Part shown: positions 18,054 through 29,575 of the stretch, in pieces
Layout: each line of letters begins with the position of its first letter
Position numbering within the stretch: position 1 is the stretch's first letter
Assembly: GCA_963712115.1 (NCBI GenBank)
Contig: CAVQGX010000037.1
Coordinates: forward strand, 1 to 64,000
From: an uncultured delta proteobacterium
Lineage (GTDB): Bacteria; Desulfobacterota; Syntrophobacteria; BM002
DNA length: 64,000 nt
Reading direction: 5' to 3'
Made by a program: the position numbers and the translations under genes
The notes under the pieces: model-generated
Database searches by the model: none
Seen by the model: the letters and a program-made list of their open reading frames with translations, nothing else
What the model was told of the DNA's origin: nothing

Positions 18054-18130
<77 letters not shown>

Positions 18131-25670: not shown

Positions 25671-25847
25671 ATTTCTCGCCCTGTGGTCTGCGCCTCTCTT
25701 CAATCCGCAATCCGCACTCTACAATTTACAATCTACAATCTGCAATCTAAAATCTGCAATCCCCAATCCCCCTGCCGGGCAATAGATGAGTGAGACTCTC
25801 CTCTTTGAGGCTGCGGCTTACCTGTCTCTATTTGGCCAAAAAGCTTA

Positions 25848-25877
25848 TTGACACTCGCCCTTTCTCTTTGCTAGTGT
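25848..25877 (+). promoter_or_regulatory. sigma-70-type promoter before the riboswitch
   Basis: TTGACA-N18-TAGTGT with TG extension. Confidence 0.55.
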
Positions 25878-25887
25878 TCAGAACACC

Positions 25888-25941
25888 GGCAATGGAGTCT
25901 GCCGTAAACCGCCTGCCTATTTAGGGGCTGATGACTCCTAC
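25888..25941 (+). ncRNA. Fluoride riboswitch (crcB motif)
   Basis: GGCAATGGAGTCTGCC-GTAAACCGCC...GGCTGATGACTCCTAC matches the fluoride aptamer pattern, including the GGAGTC/GACTCC pseudoknot pairing. Confidence 0.93.
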
Positions 25942-26062
25942 TTCAAAACCGTTTGGGGTAGGAGTCAGCACAAAGCCTACCCCACCGTACATTCCAATTG
26001 GGTTTTTTATTTTGGGCCCTGCGAAGATGCAGCCTTGCAGGAACCTGTCCCAGGAGAGGATC

Positions 26063-27841
26063 ATGCTTGACCACTACAAACAGATCAGCCAGAAGCTCAT
26101 GAGCTGCATCGGGAAATTGGCTGCGATCTCCATCAGGCGGGGTGACGATAAAGTCGAGAAGAACCTCCGAGAGATCGGGGAAAAACTGGACGGAAACCGC
26201 TTCCACCTGGTCGTGCTGGGCCAATTCAAGAGAGGAAAATCCACTTTCATCAACAGCCTTTTGGGGGATAAGGTGCTGCCCACTTCCGTGGTCCCCCTTA
26301 CTTCCATCGTCACTCTCCTTAAGTATGGTGAAGAGGAGGAGGTTGAAGTTCTGTTCAACGACGGTAACAAAACCACCATCTCCCGGAATCAACTGGAAGA
26401 ATATGTTACGGAGAGGGGCAACCCTTCTAATCAGAAGAACGTCAAACATGTTGAGGCATCTTACCCCTCCGGCTATCTCAAGGACGGTGTGTTCATCATC
26501 GACACTCCCGGGGTGGGCTCTACTTTCGAGAACAATACCGAGATGACCTATAATTACCTGCCGAGAGTAGACGCTGCCCTCTTTCTGTTGGCGGTGGACC
26601 CGCCCATCAGTCAGTCTGAAATAGCATTTCTTGCCGACGTTAAAGACTATGTTGAGAAGATCTTTTTTGTCCAGAATAAGATTGACTACATGAACGAAGA
26701 AGAGCGGAAGGAATCCATGGCCTTCTCCAAGGAGGTAATCGAAAAGGCACTCGGTTCCGACAGCATCACCATTTATCCAATTTCCGCCAAGCTCGCCCTG
26801 CAGGCAAAACAGTCAAAGAACAAGAAACTTTTAAGAAAGAGCCGGCTGCCTGAGTTTGACAAGGTACTGGGCGATTTTCTCCTTAAGGAAAAGGGGAAAA
26901 CCGTTCTGCGTTCGGCTCTCAACAGTACCAGGAAACTTCTCTCTGATGAGGAGTTTGCCATCCAGTTGGAACTTCGAGCCATTGCCACACCCCTGGAGGC
27001 TCTTGAGCAAAAGATTCACCTTTTCCAGGAAAAAATGGAAGTGGTCAGGCAGGACCGTGAGGACAATGTTTACTATTTCCAAGGCGAGATCAAGCGCCTC
27101 ATTGACATACTGGATCGCGACCTGGACAGACTCAAAAAAAGTGAGATACCAAGATTGATGAAAGAACTGGAGGCGATTGGCGAAAAGTACCAGCACAAGA
27201 GCGTCTCCCAGTTCGTCAAGCTTATGGAGGCAGCGCTAAACGAGGGTGTCGTTCGCACCTTTGATGACTGGATCGTCAAAGAGGAAGAGCGGCTGAATCA
27301 GGAGTATGCTCGCATTTCCAGTCGCTTTTCCAATCGGACCAATGAGATCATCGACGCTATTGTCACTGCCTCCATGGAGCTTTTTGATCTGAAGCTGGAT
27401 AGATTTGCCGCAGAAGAGACTATCAACAGGGACAGTCAGCTTTATTACATGGTGGGTGACCCGCCAAGATTTTTTGACTTGGAGGGGGCGTTTGATTTTT
27501 TTTCCCAGAAGATTTTACCTAGAAACTTTTCTCAATCCATGGTGCTCAGAGACCTGCAAAAGAAAATTCCCGAAAAGATCGACAAGAACAGCGGCAGGGT
27601 CCGTTGGGATTTCATGGACCGGATCAACAAGAGCTTCCTGAAGTTTCGCTGGGAGCTGAATTTGACCATTGATGCCACCAAAGAAGGGATCGAGAAGGCC
27701 ATCGACAAGGCAATGGAGCTGAAGAAAGCAAGCGCGGCCGAGGTTGAAAAGGCCACGAAGCTGATCAGCGGACAATACGAAGAACTCAAATTGGTTAAGG
27801 TGGATCTTCAAGCCCTGGAAGATGCCATACAAGCCTTGTAG
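26063..27841 (+). CDS. Bacterial dynamin-like GTPase
   Basis: G1 GQFKRGKST, VVPLT, G3 DTPG, G4 NKID, long helical C-terminal stalk; AGGAGAGG RBS before ATG 26063. Confidence 0.9.
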   Translation: MLDHYKQISQKLMSCIGKLAAISIRRGDDKVEKNLREIGEKLDGNRFHLVVLGQFKRGKSTFINSLLGDKVLPTSVVPLTSIVTLLKYGEEEEVEVLFNDGNKTTISRNQLEEYVTERGNPSNQKNVKHVEASYPSGYLKDGVFIIDTPGVGSTFENNTEMTYNYLPRVDAALFLLAVDPPISQSEIAFLADVKDYVEKIFFVQNKIDYMNEEERKESMAFSKEVIEKALGSDSITIYPISAKLALQAKQSKNKKLLRKSRLPEFDKVLGDFLLKEKGKTVLRSALNSTRKLLSDEEFAIQLELRAIATPLEALEQKIHLFQEKMEVVRQDREDNVYYFQGEIKRLIDILDRDLDRLKKSEIPRLMKELEAIGEKYQHKSVSQFVKLMEAALNEGVVRTFDDWIVKEEERLNQEYARISSRFSNRTNEIIDAIVTASMELFDLKLDRFAAEETINRDSQLYYMVGDPPRFFDLEGAFDFFSQKILPRNFSQSMVLRDLQKKIPEKIDKNSGRVRWDFMDRINKSFLKFRWELNLTIDATKEGIEKAIDKAMELKKASAAEVEKATKLISGQYEELKLVKVDLQALEDAIQAL

Positions 27842-27976
27842 CCGGCCAGGCAGATTGGTCAACCCTGCTGCAACACAAGTTGGTAAAAACATGCCTTCGT
27901 GGTAAGGTAAGCGCGATTCCGCCCCCATGCTCCCCATAATTGATTTGTTGATTTTCTCATTTTTCGGAGGACAGTC

Positions 27977-29449
27977 ATGGCAATAAGCCTGGCACTGATT
28001 GTAGTCTTCGGCCTGGCAGCGGATATCATTTTCCGCAAATTCAAGCTTCCTGGCCTGGTTGGCATGCTCATTGTCGGAGTTCTGGTAGGCCCCTACGTCA
28101 TAGGTCTCATGCGACCTGAAATGATGGAGGTCTCTGCCGACTTCAGAAGAATCGCCCTAATTGTCATTCTGCTGCGGGCTGGATTCGAGCTGCGACGGGA
28201 CACCATGCACCGGGTAGGTAAAACAGCGCTAATCATGTCAGCAGTGCCGGCCATCTTTGAAATTGCTGCAGTGGTGGCAGTGGCGCCTTACTTCCTGGAA
28301 ATCTCCCTCCTCGAAGCCGCCATTCTGGGCAGCATTCTGGGAGCGGTTTCCCCGGCAGTGGTGGTGCCCCTGATGATCGATTTTATGGAGAGGGGCAAAG
28401 GGGCCAAGAAGGGAATCCCAACAATGATATTGGCGGCCTCCTCCGTGGATGACGTCTTTGTCATTGTCCTCTTTACCATCTTTCTCGGTATGTATGGCGG
28501 CCACAAGGTCAATATCGCCTGGCAACTTGCCGGTATACCTATATCCATCGTCCTGGGGATAATTGTTGGTTTGATTCCCGGTTATCTACTCTACCGGCTT
28601 TTTCTCAAATACGACTGGCAACCTCCCCGGCGCACCCTTCTGGTTATAGGAACTTCCATATGTCTCATGTGGTTGGAGGAAATCGCCCACAATGTAGTGC
28701 CCATTGCCGCCCTGTTGGGGGTGATGGCCATAGGCTTCATCATCCTGGAAAAAGAGGAAGCCATTGCCCACATCATCTCCCAAAAGCTCAAGAAGCTCTG
28801 GGTTTTTGCGGAACTGCTGCTTTTTGTCCTGGTGGGAGCTCAGGTAAATGTATCTGTGGCCTGGAAAGCGGGGGCGGCGGGGCTGGCGGTTATTTTTATC
28901 GGCCTGGTGGCCAGATCGATTGGTACCTACCTGTCGGTTTTGGGCACCGATTACACTTGGAAAGAGCGCTTGTTTTGCGTGGTTGCTTACGTGCCCAAAG
29001 CAACTGTTCAGGCGGCCATCGGCGCAGTCCCCCTGGAAGCTGGGGTGGCCGGTGGTGAGGTGATTTTAGCTGTGGCAGTGCTCAGCATCCTGGTGACAGC
29101 ACCCCTCGGTGCCATTGGCATTATGCTCCTGGGTGAACCCATCTTGGAAGAAGAGAAACTCACGACCTACCGGTTCAAGACCCTAAGAGTGAAATTGCAG
29201 CTGCCAAGGGTAGGCGAGAGAATAAGAAGCAAAAGATATGGAACTATCTGGAAGATAATAGAAGAGAAGGAGGTTTGGCTGAAGACGCCTGGAACTGAAG
29301 GGAAGGAACCCGGGCCCATGCCGGCAATCTATTTGAGATTCTGGCAGCCGGAGTCGAGCAGTTCAGCCGGCACGGGCAAGACCATGGAGTATAGATACAG
29401 TTTTGTTGACACCTCATTTCATGCCAACTGGGAAATTCTCTATGACTAG
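27977..29449 (+). CDS. Cation/H+ antiporter, NHA2/SLC9B-like, with extra C-terminal domain
   Basis: ILLRAG, AVSPAVVVP, SVDDVF (DD motif), PKATVQAA; about 12-13 TM helices; GGAGG RBS. Confidence 0.9.
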   Translation: MAISLALIVVFGLAADIIFRKFKLPGLVGMLIVGVLVGPYVIGLMRPEMMEVSADFRRIALIVILLRAGFELRRDTMHRVGKTALIMSAVPAIFEIAAVVAVAPYFLEISLLEAAILGSILGAVSPAVVVPLMIDFMERGKGAKKGIPTMILAASSVDDVFVIVLFTIFLGMYGGHKVNIAWQLAGIPISIVLGIIVGLIPGYLLYRLFLKYDWQPPRRTLLVIGTSICLMWLEEIAHNVVPIAALLGVMAIGFIILEKEEAIAHIISQKLKKLWVFAELLLFVLVGAQVNVSVAWKAGAAGLAVIFIGLVARSIGTYLSVLGTDYTWKERLFCVVAYVPKATVQAAIGAVPLEAGVAGGEVILAVAVLSILVTAPLGAIGIMLLGEPILEEEKLTTYRFKTLRVKLQLPRVGERIRSKRYGTIWKIIEEKEVWLKTPGTEGKEPGPMPAIYLRFWQPESSSSAGTGKTMEYRYSFVDTSFHANWEILYD

Positions 29450-29575
29450 CGCAGAACGCATGGCGAAAAGGCATAGGGCATAGAGCATAGGGTTAAAATT
29501 TCGAAATTAAGATTCCGCAATTCTCGATTCCCATAGTGCTTAGTGCTTACTGCATAGTGCCTAGTTCGCAAAGCT

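Follow-up and report, generated by a model that had tools for sequence, protein, structure and literature searches.

A fluoride riboswitch precedes a dynamin-like GTPase gene and an NHA2-type antiporter gene and recurs with the dynamin gene in distant genomes

The 64,000-nt stretch of DNA that we analyzed (the window) carries a fluoride aptamer in the 5′ leader of a gene for a dynamin-like GTPase, which is followed on the same strand by a gene for an NHA2-type antiporter (Table 1). A preliminary description of the locus had proposed each of these elements, together with a promoter just 5′ of the aptamer, and our searches and alignments bore it out on all four. Using the Rfam covariance model for the fluoride riboswitch (RF01734), we obtained a full-length match (model positions 1–64 of 64) at 58.0 bits, compared with a gathering score of 34 (E = 1.7e-13), and this was the sole match in the 4.9-Mb genome. 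The 3′ end of the aptamer lies 115 nt from the likely start codon of the GTPase gene. The −35 hexamer of the promoter-like element and a TAGnnT box are kept as conserved columns in the closer leaders of our leader alignment; the element was absent from the output of a consensus promoter scanner because its −10 box is too distant from TATAAT.

Table 1. Features of the riboswitch–GTPase–antiporter locus, in window coordinates.
Feature	Position	Strand	Details
Promoter-like element	25848-25877	+	TTGACA 25848-25853, 18-nt spacer, TAGTGT 25872-25877; read from the sequence
Fluoride riboswitch aptamer (crcB motif, RF01734)	25879-25947	+	Rfam model match; paired core ~25888-25941
H1, anti-aptamer hairpin	25932-25967	+	TGACTCCTAC 25932-25941 pairs with GTAGGAGTCA 25958-25967
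H1, paired strands	25933-25966	+	GACTCCTAC 25933-25941 : GTAGGAGTC 25958-25966
H2, candidate antiterminator	25955-25983	+	GGGGTAGG 25955-25962 pairs with CCTACCCC 25976-25983
Terminator-like hairpin	25972-26013	+	AAAGCCTA 25972-25979 : TGGGTTTT 25999-26006, then T-run to 26013
H4, second conserved hairpin	26016-26045	+	From the leader alignment; T-run in most relatives, none in the window
Ribosome-binding site of the GTPase gene	26052-26059	+	AGGAGAGG
BDLP/IniA-type dynamin-like GTPase (P0002)	26063-27841	+	592 aa; Pfam Dynamin_N 4.2e-32
Intergenic gap	27842-27976	+	135 nt; ribosome-binding site GGAGGA 27966-27971
NHA2-type CPA2 cation/proton antiporter (P0001)	27977-29449	+	490 aa; Pfam Na_H_Exchanger (PF00999) 4.2e-47

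Downstream of the aptamer, the leader can adopt a set of competing helices. The two alternative pairings put forward in the preliminary description, H1 and H2, were recovered at exactly the positions it had proposed, and both are conserved in 13 related leaders. H1 competes with the pseudoknot strand of the aptamer and is present in minimum-energy folds, and H2 can coexist neither with H1 nor with the terminator stem, whose counterpart in relatives (H3) is mostly CCCACC:GGTGGG followed by a T-run. Across the 13 leaders, paired cells made up 90.6% of H1, 96.2% of H2, 92.3% of H3 and 79.7% of H4, and 35–61% of slid controls in which the partner strand of H1 or H2 was shifted by 1–3 columns (46–61% for the H2 controls). 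Covariation was slight, with the platform helices mostly conserved rather than compensated among these leaders; four pairs of H4 were altered on both sides. When we folded the window leader under constraints, the terminator stem appeared in the free fold and H2 took its place once the 3′ strand of the aptamer was held. Several relatives retained H3 in the minimum-energy fold even with that strand held, and the relay would therefore depend on co-transcriptional kinetics. The window terminator stem is weak (8 pairs, G-U pairs included) and was unlisted by a simple terminator scanner, and the whole-leader fold was only 1.6 sd better than shuffles. As judged from sequence, these results support a genuine fluoride riboswitch with a switchable platform. 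Many crcB RNAs likewise have a terminator platform that overlaps the 3′ strand of the aptamer, according to Weinberg 2010 (PMC2864571); the window differs from the classical platforms in its predicted three-helix relay, which replaces a terminator directly overlapping the aptamer.

The listed open reading frame of the GTPase begins at 25931, inside the aptamer, and the likely start is the ATG at 26063, behind AGGAGAGG. The closest solved relatives of the protein were BDLP of Nostoc punctiforme and IniA of the Mycobacterium iniBAC operon, both by sequence (2j68, 3.2e-49, and 6j72, 4.1e-33, respectively) and by Foldseek comparison of the AF2 model (IniA 2.5e-21, BDLP 3.0e-21, probability 1.00). 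As in these proteins, the G domain leads into a neck and trunk of long helices, which span residues 277–441 and 473–591 in the AF2 model (pLDDT 84.9); identity in the structural alignments is only 18–19%. The G motifs GQFKRGKST, DTPG and NKID are present, and G53, G58, K59, T80, T84, D147, T148, P149, G150, N205, K206 and D208 were invariant in 38 sequences. Aromatic residues are kept in the family consensus at the predicted trunk tip (residues 444–472); unlike in IniA and BDLP, this tip was modeled at low confidence (pLDDT <50), and we therefore regard membrane binding by the GTPase as putative. The locus further departs from these comparison systems in that no partner dynamin adjoins the gene within the window. 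As predicted for the window GTPase, IniA is a stress-induced, single-gene-family dynamin; it responds to drugs, whereas the predicted inducer route here is a fluoride-sensing RNA and not a protein regulator.

For the antiporter, the closest solved chain was SLC9B2/NHA2 (7b4l, 8.4e-41). The membrane part (residues 9–392) has the 13-helix-type Na_H_Exchanger core of SLC9B2/NHA2 and NapA, and it keeps both the DD motif (SVDDV, aligned to SFDDI in NHA2) and the PKATVQAAIG helix, which is identical in NHA2; D158, D159 and K341 were invariant in 21 orthologues. The N-terminal extension of NHA2 is missing (the match begins at chain residue 142) and, unlike NHA2 and NapA, the protein adds a beta-rich C-terminal domain of ~100 aa (nt ~29150–29446) that is conserved in the same 21 orthologues. 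This domain was modeled by AF2 as one helix and a small beta domain (pLDDT 84.8) and had no significant structural match in the PDB (best Foldseek E-value 0.087, EF-P domain I). On the sequence features above, the protein is most likely an electrogenic Na+(Li+,K+)/H+ exchanger of NHA2 type.

The absence of Fluc/CrcB and CLC-F genes from the window, noted earlier, extended for CrcB to the whole genome. The CrcB profile (PF02537), which was positive in 11 of 14 reference genomes used as a control, gave no match in the host genome and none in any of the order's 22 genomes; the host assembly is 94.4% complete with 6% contamination, and an exporter could therefore be unassembled. Three CLC genes were found, all on other contigs and none near the riboswitch, and none of them carries the CLC-F signatures GNNLI/GMGLI, GREGT/V or GEVTP given in PMC11139923, having GREGP or GKEGP instead. 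Compared with classical fluoride-riboswitch operons, whose cargo is crcB/Fluc, eriC-F/CLC-F, a Na+/H+ antiporter, enolase or pyrophosphatase, the locus shares the aptamer family, with a full score, but has no recognised exporter in operon or genome. A Na+/H+ antiporter is a familiar cargo, and PMC11139923 ranks such antiporters second in frequency among the gene classes associated with fluoride riboswitches.

These absences, together with the conserved extra C-terminal domain and the position of the antiporter subfamily directly behind fluoride aptamers at 24–33 of 79 loci, would fit a reading in which the NHA2-type protein is a non-canonical fluoride/HF exporter that substitutes for the missing Fluc/CLC-F. 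We consider this very improbable, given that the protein retains, in alignment with NHA2, both the DD motif and the lysine conserved in cation/proton CPA2 exchangers, that its gene belongs to the core of the genus and lacks fluoride control there, and that a pH/Na+ role accounts for the association without new chemistry (PMC11139923). In the fluoride-stress module proposed in the preliminary description, the riboswitch and dynamin cargo are accordingly supported and the F− exporter is not.

Recurrence was examined at increasing distances from the window. Among close loci, the aptamer was found at 11 of 14, the remaining three being two without upstream DNA and one with a decayed aptamer. Within the order, all seven window-type copies carry the aptamer, and 15 of the 22 genomes had no window-type copy (E 1e-20). 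More distant relatives (32–78% identity, from many phyla and some archaea) had a same-strand upstream aptamer at 55 of 80 loci, 51 of them within 500 nt; the other 25 had none within the 1.5-kb upstream flank searched. The riboswitch label fell on 53 rows of a tree of 77 proteins and was scattered over most clades. At the class level, the aptamer was present at 41 of 58 window-type copies vs. 1 of 69 in a paralogous clade, and a dynamin match lay downstream of 52 of the 150 aptamers listed. These counts, drawn from genome sequences, support the riboswitch plus the dynamin as the conserved evolutionary unit, with the dynamin as its conserved cargo. The ORFs first downstream of the dynamin gene (n = 59) included MFS in six, enolase in four, Na_H_Exchanger in two and HAD-like in two, neighbors that fit a fluoride setting. 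A dynamin-like GTPase as first and conserved cargo sets the locus apart from the classical operons, being a gene class unnamed in the literature searched. Full-text searches of the literature covered, together with one paper's supplements, gave no link between fluoride riboswitches and dynamins, in line with the earlier remark that no fluoride role for dynamins had been described.

The GTPase could instead be a back-up or decoy, an extra or fluoride-tolerant copy rather than a dedicated membrane-repair factor. Structural work has shown dynamin-type GTPases trapped by metal fluorides, and on this reading Mg or Al fluoride complexes would mimic the gamma-phosphate and trap such enzymes in the cell. 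Many class genomes contain an unlinked paralogue alongside the copy that has a riboswitch, which would agree with a back-up, as would the second, distant Dynamin_N protein on another contig (C22) of the host genome; fluoride-inhibited enolase and pyrophosphatase are moreover classic riboswitch cargo (PMC11139923), and the enolases counted above lie behind the dynamin gene. The linked and unlinked copies, however, form separate, long-diverged clades and are not recent duplicates, and the order genomes that do without a window-type copy, which is therefore dispensable, also speak against this explanation. We judge it improbable, if less so than fluoride export by the antiporter.

The history of the locus bears on how closely the two genes belong together. 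In same-genus comparisons, the riboswitch and dynamin gene form a ~2.2-kb cassette that behaves as an indel before a core antiporter gene: ten same-genus loci have the order UbiB, HhH-GPD, antiporter, peptidase with no dynamin, and none of the 12 dynamin-free same-genus antiporter loci has an aptamer (for 5 of them, Rfam at E 0.1 likewise gave no hit). In one genome, the cassette lies at one locus (L013) and an antiporter without it at another (L122). The window gap did not align with the conserved native antiporter leader of cassette-free relatives, and these comparisons indicate that the cassette is mobile and has been inserted here before the core antiporter, displacing its native leader. 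As the antiporter is a fixed-place core gene without a riboswitch in the genus, its pairing with the dynamin is secondary here.

Such a history raises the alternative that the riboswitch governs the dynamin gene only, with a separate promoter in the 135-nt gap driving the antiporter, whose place behind the cassette would be an accident of insertion. The 12 same-genus antiporters without dynamin or aptamer, which occupy the matching chromosomal position wherever the flank is readable, are consistent with this, as are the genome with separate cassette and antiporter and the wider gap (365 nt) of L010, the closest relative. The gap is merely ~57 nt in two other relatives (L011 and L012), however; a consensus scanner listed no promoter-like or terminator-like site within it in the window, and the cassette has replaced the native leader. 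The riboswitch–dynamin–antiporter order, whose recurrence we counted as the preliminary description had suggested, was present at 11 of 79 antiporter-orthologue loci with different, unrelated dynamin subclades, and more distant antiporter orthologues are themselves behind an aptamer (24 of 79 loci at ≥30 bits, plus 9 weaker). Control of the dynamin gene alone is thus rather unlikely.

We favor, as somewhat probable, a fluoride-inducible transcription unit in which the switch controls the GTPase and then the antiporter, with roles in membrane remodeling and in pH/Na+ adjustment. RNA would start from the promoter at ~25848–25877, and its first 60–70 nt would form the aptamer. Without fluoride, the 3′ strand of the aptamer, GACTCCTAC, would pair with GTAGGAGTC in H1, freeing CCTA...CCCC for the terminator hairpin and U-run, at which transcription would stop. 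With fluoride bound, that strand would be held in the pseudoknot, GGGGTAGG and CCTACCCC would form H2, and the blocked terminator would allow RNA polymerase to read through into the dynamin gene and then, most likely, across the terminator-free gap into the antiporter gene. Both the fluoride-dependent read-through and the co-transcription are predicted from sequence. The GTPase may then bind, remodel or reseal the cytoplasmic membrane when fluoride/HF stress harms the envelope, a role proposed by analogy with IniA and DynA, which are stress-induced dynamins with membrane roles. The antiporter would tune cytoplasmic pH and Na+ and thereby limit fluoride loading, since F− behaves as a weak acid whose accumulation scales with the pH gradient.

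Present accounts of microbial fluoride defense rest on two exporters, Fluc and CLC-F, with metabolic back-ups, a picture that is not easily squared with about one-third of the best-scoring fluoride riboswitches of the class preceding one dynamin-like GTPase clade, with the spread of this pairing over many phyla and some archaea, and with its occurrence in genomes without a recognisable exporter. We tentatively raise the further idea, which we hold to be rather unlikely, that an ancient bacterial and archaeal dynamin-like clade is a dedicated, exporter-independent effector of the fluoride response and the main defense in CrcB-free lineages. Such a GTPase might reseal lesions or shed membrane bearing metal-fluoride deposits, with help from an NHA2-type antiporter, which would reduce the pH gradient that drives fluoride into the cell; in the boldest form, GDP with Mg-fluoride would trap the dimeric transition state of the G domains, and fluoride would both induce and activate the enzyme. 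Bacterial dynamins are a family still seeking physiological roles, and fluoride as a defined inducer, acting through a defined regulatory RNA, offers a simple handle on their function. For fluoride biology and organofluorine bioengineering, the locus points to a candidate resistance determinant that would act on the envelope rather than by ion export. The host is a sediment bacterium, and its class is likewise one of sediment bacteria.

A fluoride aptamer followed by a conserved, switchable platform stands ahead of a gene for a BDLP/IniA-type GTPase, which is its conserved cargo, with an NHA2-type exchanger gene behind. The aptamer named in the preliminary description was borne out by the Rfam Fluoride model (RF01734), which matched in full with 58.0 bits (gathering score, 34), and it is the sole fluoride aptamer of the 4.9-Mb, 70-contig genome. 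Closer leaders keep the -35 hexamer and a TAGnnT box of the promoter immediately 5′ of the aptamer, which was not among the sites returned by a consensus promoter scanner. An ORF called from 25931 opens within the aptamer; we ruled out this start because of that location, whereas the ATG at 26063 has a ribosome-binding site and matches the starts of relatives, and the first gene almost certainly begins there, preceded by AGGAGAGG. Short near-tandem units lie on either side of the two genes, and relatives have similar repeats at the same intergenic site. Despite the upstream heptamers, the nearest database records to the window's genes are deltaproteobacterial/Thermodesulfobacteriota genomes, not cyanobacterial ones.

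Features of the fluoride-riboswitch locus and its surroundings in the window
Feature	Position	Strand	Remarks
tRNA gene	18054-18127		72.2 bits; besides the aptamer, sole Rfam match within the window
UbiB-type kinase gene			upstream flank
HhH-GPD glycosylase gene			upstream flank; divergent
Near-tandem units, upstream	25690-25775		CAATCYR-type heptamers
Promoter, -35 TTGACA	25848-25853	+	
Promoter, TAGTGT	25872-25877	+	
Fluoride aptamer	25879-25947	+	
TGACTCCTAC	25932-25941		complementary to GTAGGAGTCA
GTAGGAGTCA	25958-25967		
GGGGTAGG	25955-25962		complementary to CCTACCCC
CCTACCCC	25976-25983		
Terminator stem, AAAGCCTA	25972-25979		free fold
Terminator stem, TGGGTTTT	25999-26006		free fold; T-run 3′ of it
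Dynamin-like GTPase gene (start almost certain)	26063-27841	+	592 aa
NHA2-type antiporter gene	27977-29449	+	490 aa; ribosome-binding site GGAGGA upstream
Antiporter C-terminal domain	29150-29446		residues 392-490, ~100 aa
Near-tandem units, downstream	29455-29570		CATAGRG/TAGTGC-type
MA-clan peptidase gene			downstream flank; convergent

The two alternative pairings proposed earlier for the region behind the aptamer are exact, with both helices at the positions described. We counted paired cells in an alignment of 13 leaders (the window and relatives): 90.6% were paired in H1, the anti-aptamer hairpin joining the aptamer 3′ strand to its competitor, 96.2% in H2, the antiterminator, 92.3% in H3, the terminator stem of relatives (CCCACC:GGTGGG, with a T-run in the closer ones), and 79.7% in H4, a second hairpin with four pairs altered on both sides and a T-run in most relatives. 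Shifting the 3′ partner by 1-3 columns brought pairing down to 35-61%. Covariation in the platform helices is slight, and they are conserved rather than compensated. The window's own terminator stem has drifted, and this weak terminator was not among the sites of a simple terminator scanner. In constrained folding with the aptamer strand held, that stem was lost and H2 formed instead; in some relatives, the minimum-energy fold retained H3 even then. These folds suggest that the platform acts as a fluoride ON switch: with fluoride present, the aptamer strand would be held, H2 would form and the terminator would be blocked, and with fluoride absent, H1 would form and the terminator with it.

The riboswitch recurs with the dynamin gene. 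An aptamer lies 115-190 nt upstream in 11 of 14 close dynamin loci (61-90% identity); of the other three, two are without upstream DNA and one (L020) has a decayed 5′ half. In L020 (3770-4008), the aptamer 3′ half and the platform helices are kept, the 5′ half (P1) has decayed and the aptamer falls below the Rfam cut-off; it looks like a riboswitch on its way to loss. Within the order, the dynamin gene is present in 7 of 22 genomes, with an aptamer directly upstream in all seven. Among 80 more distant loci, the best by profile out of 616 relatives drawn from the species-genome collection (32-78% identity; three are repeats of contigs already counted), 55 have a same-strand aptamer at the Rfam gathering score in the 1.5-kb upstream flank, within 500 nt in 51, and successive batches of 20 gave 14, 14, 16 and 11. 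This set takes in Nitrospirota, Actinomycetota, Bacillota, Acidobacteriota, Aquificota, Bacteroidota and four archaeal records. Same-strand ORFs fill the upstream flank of some of the 25 aptamer-negative loci, so an aptamer farther upstream is possible there. In a quick tree of 77 distant-set proteins (four rows with internal stops removed; six partial or irregular matches and three duplicates left out), the riboswitch label falls on 53 rows spread over most clades, and the well-supported branches require at least eight changes of label. Four loci (L083, L084, L089 and L119) carry two fluoride aptamers back to back, about 200-400 nt apart, one ahead of the dynamin gene and the other ahead of a divergent gene.

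Across the 122 genomes of the class, aptamers occur in at least 91 and family members (E 1e-30) in at least 97. We matched 150 listed aptamer places against 150 listed dynamin places; the resulting counts are lower bounds, with 84 aptamer and 19 dynamin places outside the comparison. At least 52 of the 150 aptamers listed lie 5′ of a dynamin match. A same-strand aptamer within 500 nt accompanies at least 41 of 58 members of the window-type clade (dynamin ranks 1-58) versus 1 of 69 in a distinct, lower-scoring paralogue clade (ranks 59-127), which ties the association to a single dynamin clade; among fragments and long forms (ranks 128-150), the count is 4 of 23. It is not a side effect of many riboswitches per genome. 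An anti-phage or mobile-island role for the dynamin was dismissed on the recurrence of the riboswitch and the fluoride-type neighbours.

The first-gene product matches Dynamin_N in Pfam (4.2e-32), and a profile of 38 family members found BDLP of Nostoc (2j68, 3.2e-49), IniA (6j72, 4.1e-33) and the Campylobacter DLP pair as its nearest solved chains. In the AF2 model (pLDDT 84.9), long helical bundles come after a G domain, and IniA (2.5e-21) and BDLP (3.0e-21) lead the Foldseek matches; the family alignment shows no substitution in G1, G3, G4 or the switch threonines. The trunk tip (residues 444-472) was modelled with low confidence, and the membrane-binding element is therefore only putative. 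The family is large: a cut-off of E 1e-30 takes in 2327 representative clusters, almost all of them about 570-630 aa in length. The copy of one sister genome (G010:C27:17142-18752, the record of L014) may be truncated, as its dynamin match ends at residue 535-538 with an in-frame TAG; its aptamer is intact.

IniA and DynA are stress-induced bacterial dynamins, and on their model the GTPase would act on the cytoplasmic membrane under fluoride stress. Lysis caused by fluoride, as described in the available text of PMC12700350, fits such a membrane role. It is also possible that the protein is a back-up or fluoride-tolerant GTPase: the genome encodes a second, distant Dynamin_N protein (G000:C22:13535-14251, L203; 758-aa frame), which is without a fluoride aptamer because the genome's single one is at the window.

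The second-gene product was rightly called NHA2-type at the outset, since it matches SLC9B2/NHA2 among solved chains (8.4e-41) and keeps the DD motif and the PKATVQAAIG helix; its Pfam match is Na_H_Exchanger (4.2e-47). The C-terminal domain is a conserved feature of every one of the 21 aligned orthologues, with W425, K426, E429, E430, W434, W456, W485 and D490 invariant; its model (pLDDT 84.8) consists of one helix and a small beta domain. Searches with this domain gave no Pfam match, no Atlas match and no significant Foldseek match, the best being EF-P domain I at E 0.087.

In this genus, the cassette of riboswitch and dynamin gene has been inserted ahead of the antiporter. Neither dynamin nor aptamer is found in 12 of 14 same-genus antiporter loci (87-96% identity). 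In ten of these 12, the glycosylase gene lies directly 5′ of the antiporter, most of the ten also having UbiB farther upstream and a peptidase gene after the antiporter; in both cassette-bearing loci, the cassette sits exactly between glycosylase and antiporter. One genome has the two on different contigs, the cassette in L013 and a cassette-free antiporter in L122. These two insertions and the split genome indicate that the riboswitch-dynamin unit moves as a block. Cassette-free genomes have a common conserved leader of ~200 nt before the antiporter, which is absent from the window and with which the window's 135-nt intergenic gap does not align. In L122, L123, L125, L131 and L137 it reads TTTACATC...GGAGTGTACCATCGG...CCGAACCGGA. 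At E 0.1, Rfam gave no match in the antiporter leader of any of the five cassette-free loci scanned, L122, L123, L125 and L131 among them, and this leader may be an unrecognised regulatory element.

With the antiporter's native leader displaced by the cassette, the simplest source of antiporter expression is transcription reading through from the riboswitch promoter. The alternative is that the antiporter is driven by a promoter of its own; a site scan of the gap between the two genes returned neither a promoter-like nor a terminator-like site. In L011 and L012, this gap measures only about 57 nt, and in L010 365 nt. In the RNA library X15, one contig spans the gene junction (27585-28029) and another covers 25803-27638, reaching 110 nt or more beyond the predicted promoter on its 5′ side; these contigs cannot prove a single transcript and may reflect DNA carry-over, and are no more than a hint of co-transcription. 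In a second library, X16, a contig starting at 27977 carries a leader of the cassette-free type, which means that relatives lacking the cassette are mixed into the sample.

Among the dynamin's close relatives, the antiporter is next only in the window, L010, L011 and L012. We scanned 79 antiporter-orthologue loci with a covariance model built from 61 aptamers and found a same-strand aptamer of at least 30 bits within 400 nt upstream in 24, with weaker ones in nine more, and a dynamin-like gene within 3 kb in 15. The triad of riboswitch, dynamin and antiporter envisaged in the preliminary description does recur, in that order in 11 of the 79, seven of which have a second aptamer between the genes. 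Dynamin and antiporter, each with aptamers of its own and repeatedly clustered, are thus independent members of the fluoride regulon.

As an electrogenic Na+/H+ exchanger, the antiporter would shift cytoplasmic pH under fluoride. Na+/H+ antiporters of the fluoride regulon are read as a counter to acidification in the available text of PMC11139923; by our reasoning, accumulation of fluoride as a weak acid scales with the pH gradient, and proton import would thereby lower fluoride loading as well. The preliminary description had instead proposed a non-canonical fluoride exporter, a role that the intact cation-site residues make unlikely; its observation of the locus stood, and its interpretation was supported in part. 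CRCB (PF02537) had no match in the genome itself (94.4% complete) or elsewhere among the order's 22 genomes. Of the class's 122 genomes, 45 encode it, and these are all of one family; the other five families (40 genomes and the window's own) have none, although most of those genomes have aptamers. The genome's three CLC genes encode 585-602-aa forms with GREGP or GKEGP and none of the CLC-F signatures given in the available text of PMC11139923.

The aptamer family and its association with Na+/H+ antiporters have been described (PMC11139923 and Weinberg 2010, PMC2864571, in their accessible portions). A full-text search found no paper joining a fluoride riboswitch to a dynamin, in keeping with the earlier remark that no fluoride role had been described for dynamins; published fluoride-regulon gene tables outside that search may list one. 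Neither "dynamin" nor "GTPase" is present in the accessible portions of Weinberg 2010 and its supplementary files. What appears to be new is a known riboswitch class with a putative membrane-remodelling GTPase as conserved cargo, in a genome without a known exporter.

The gene after the dynamin encodes a prenyltransferase-like toroid protein in six relatives (L015-L018, L022 and L023) and unrelated proteins in the remaining close ones. Toroid and zinc-ribbon/HEAT proteins were rejected as partners in the window's own genome, where the toroid query had no match and the HEAT query weak generic matches only. Two same-genus sisters, G007:C234 (L040 1501-3068) and G010:C55 (L039 1501-3070), have a second fluoride aptamer; it stands ahead of genes for a small zinc-ribbon/HEAT-repeat protein and for the same prenyltransferase-like alpha/alpha-toroid protein as in those six relatives. 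In L040, a 139-aa unnamed protein likewise lies behind it.
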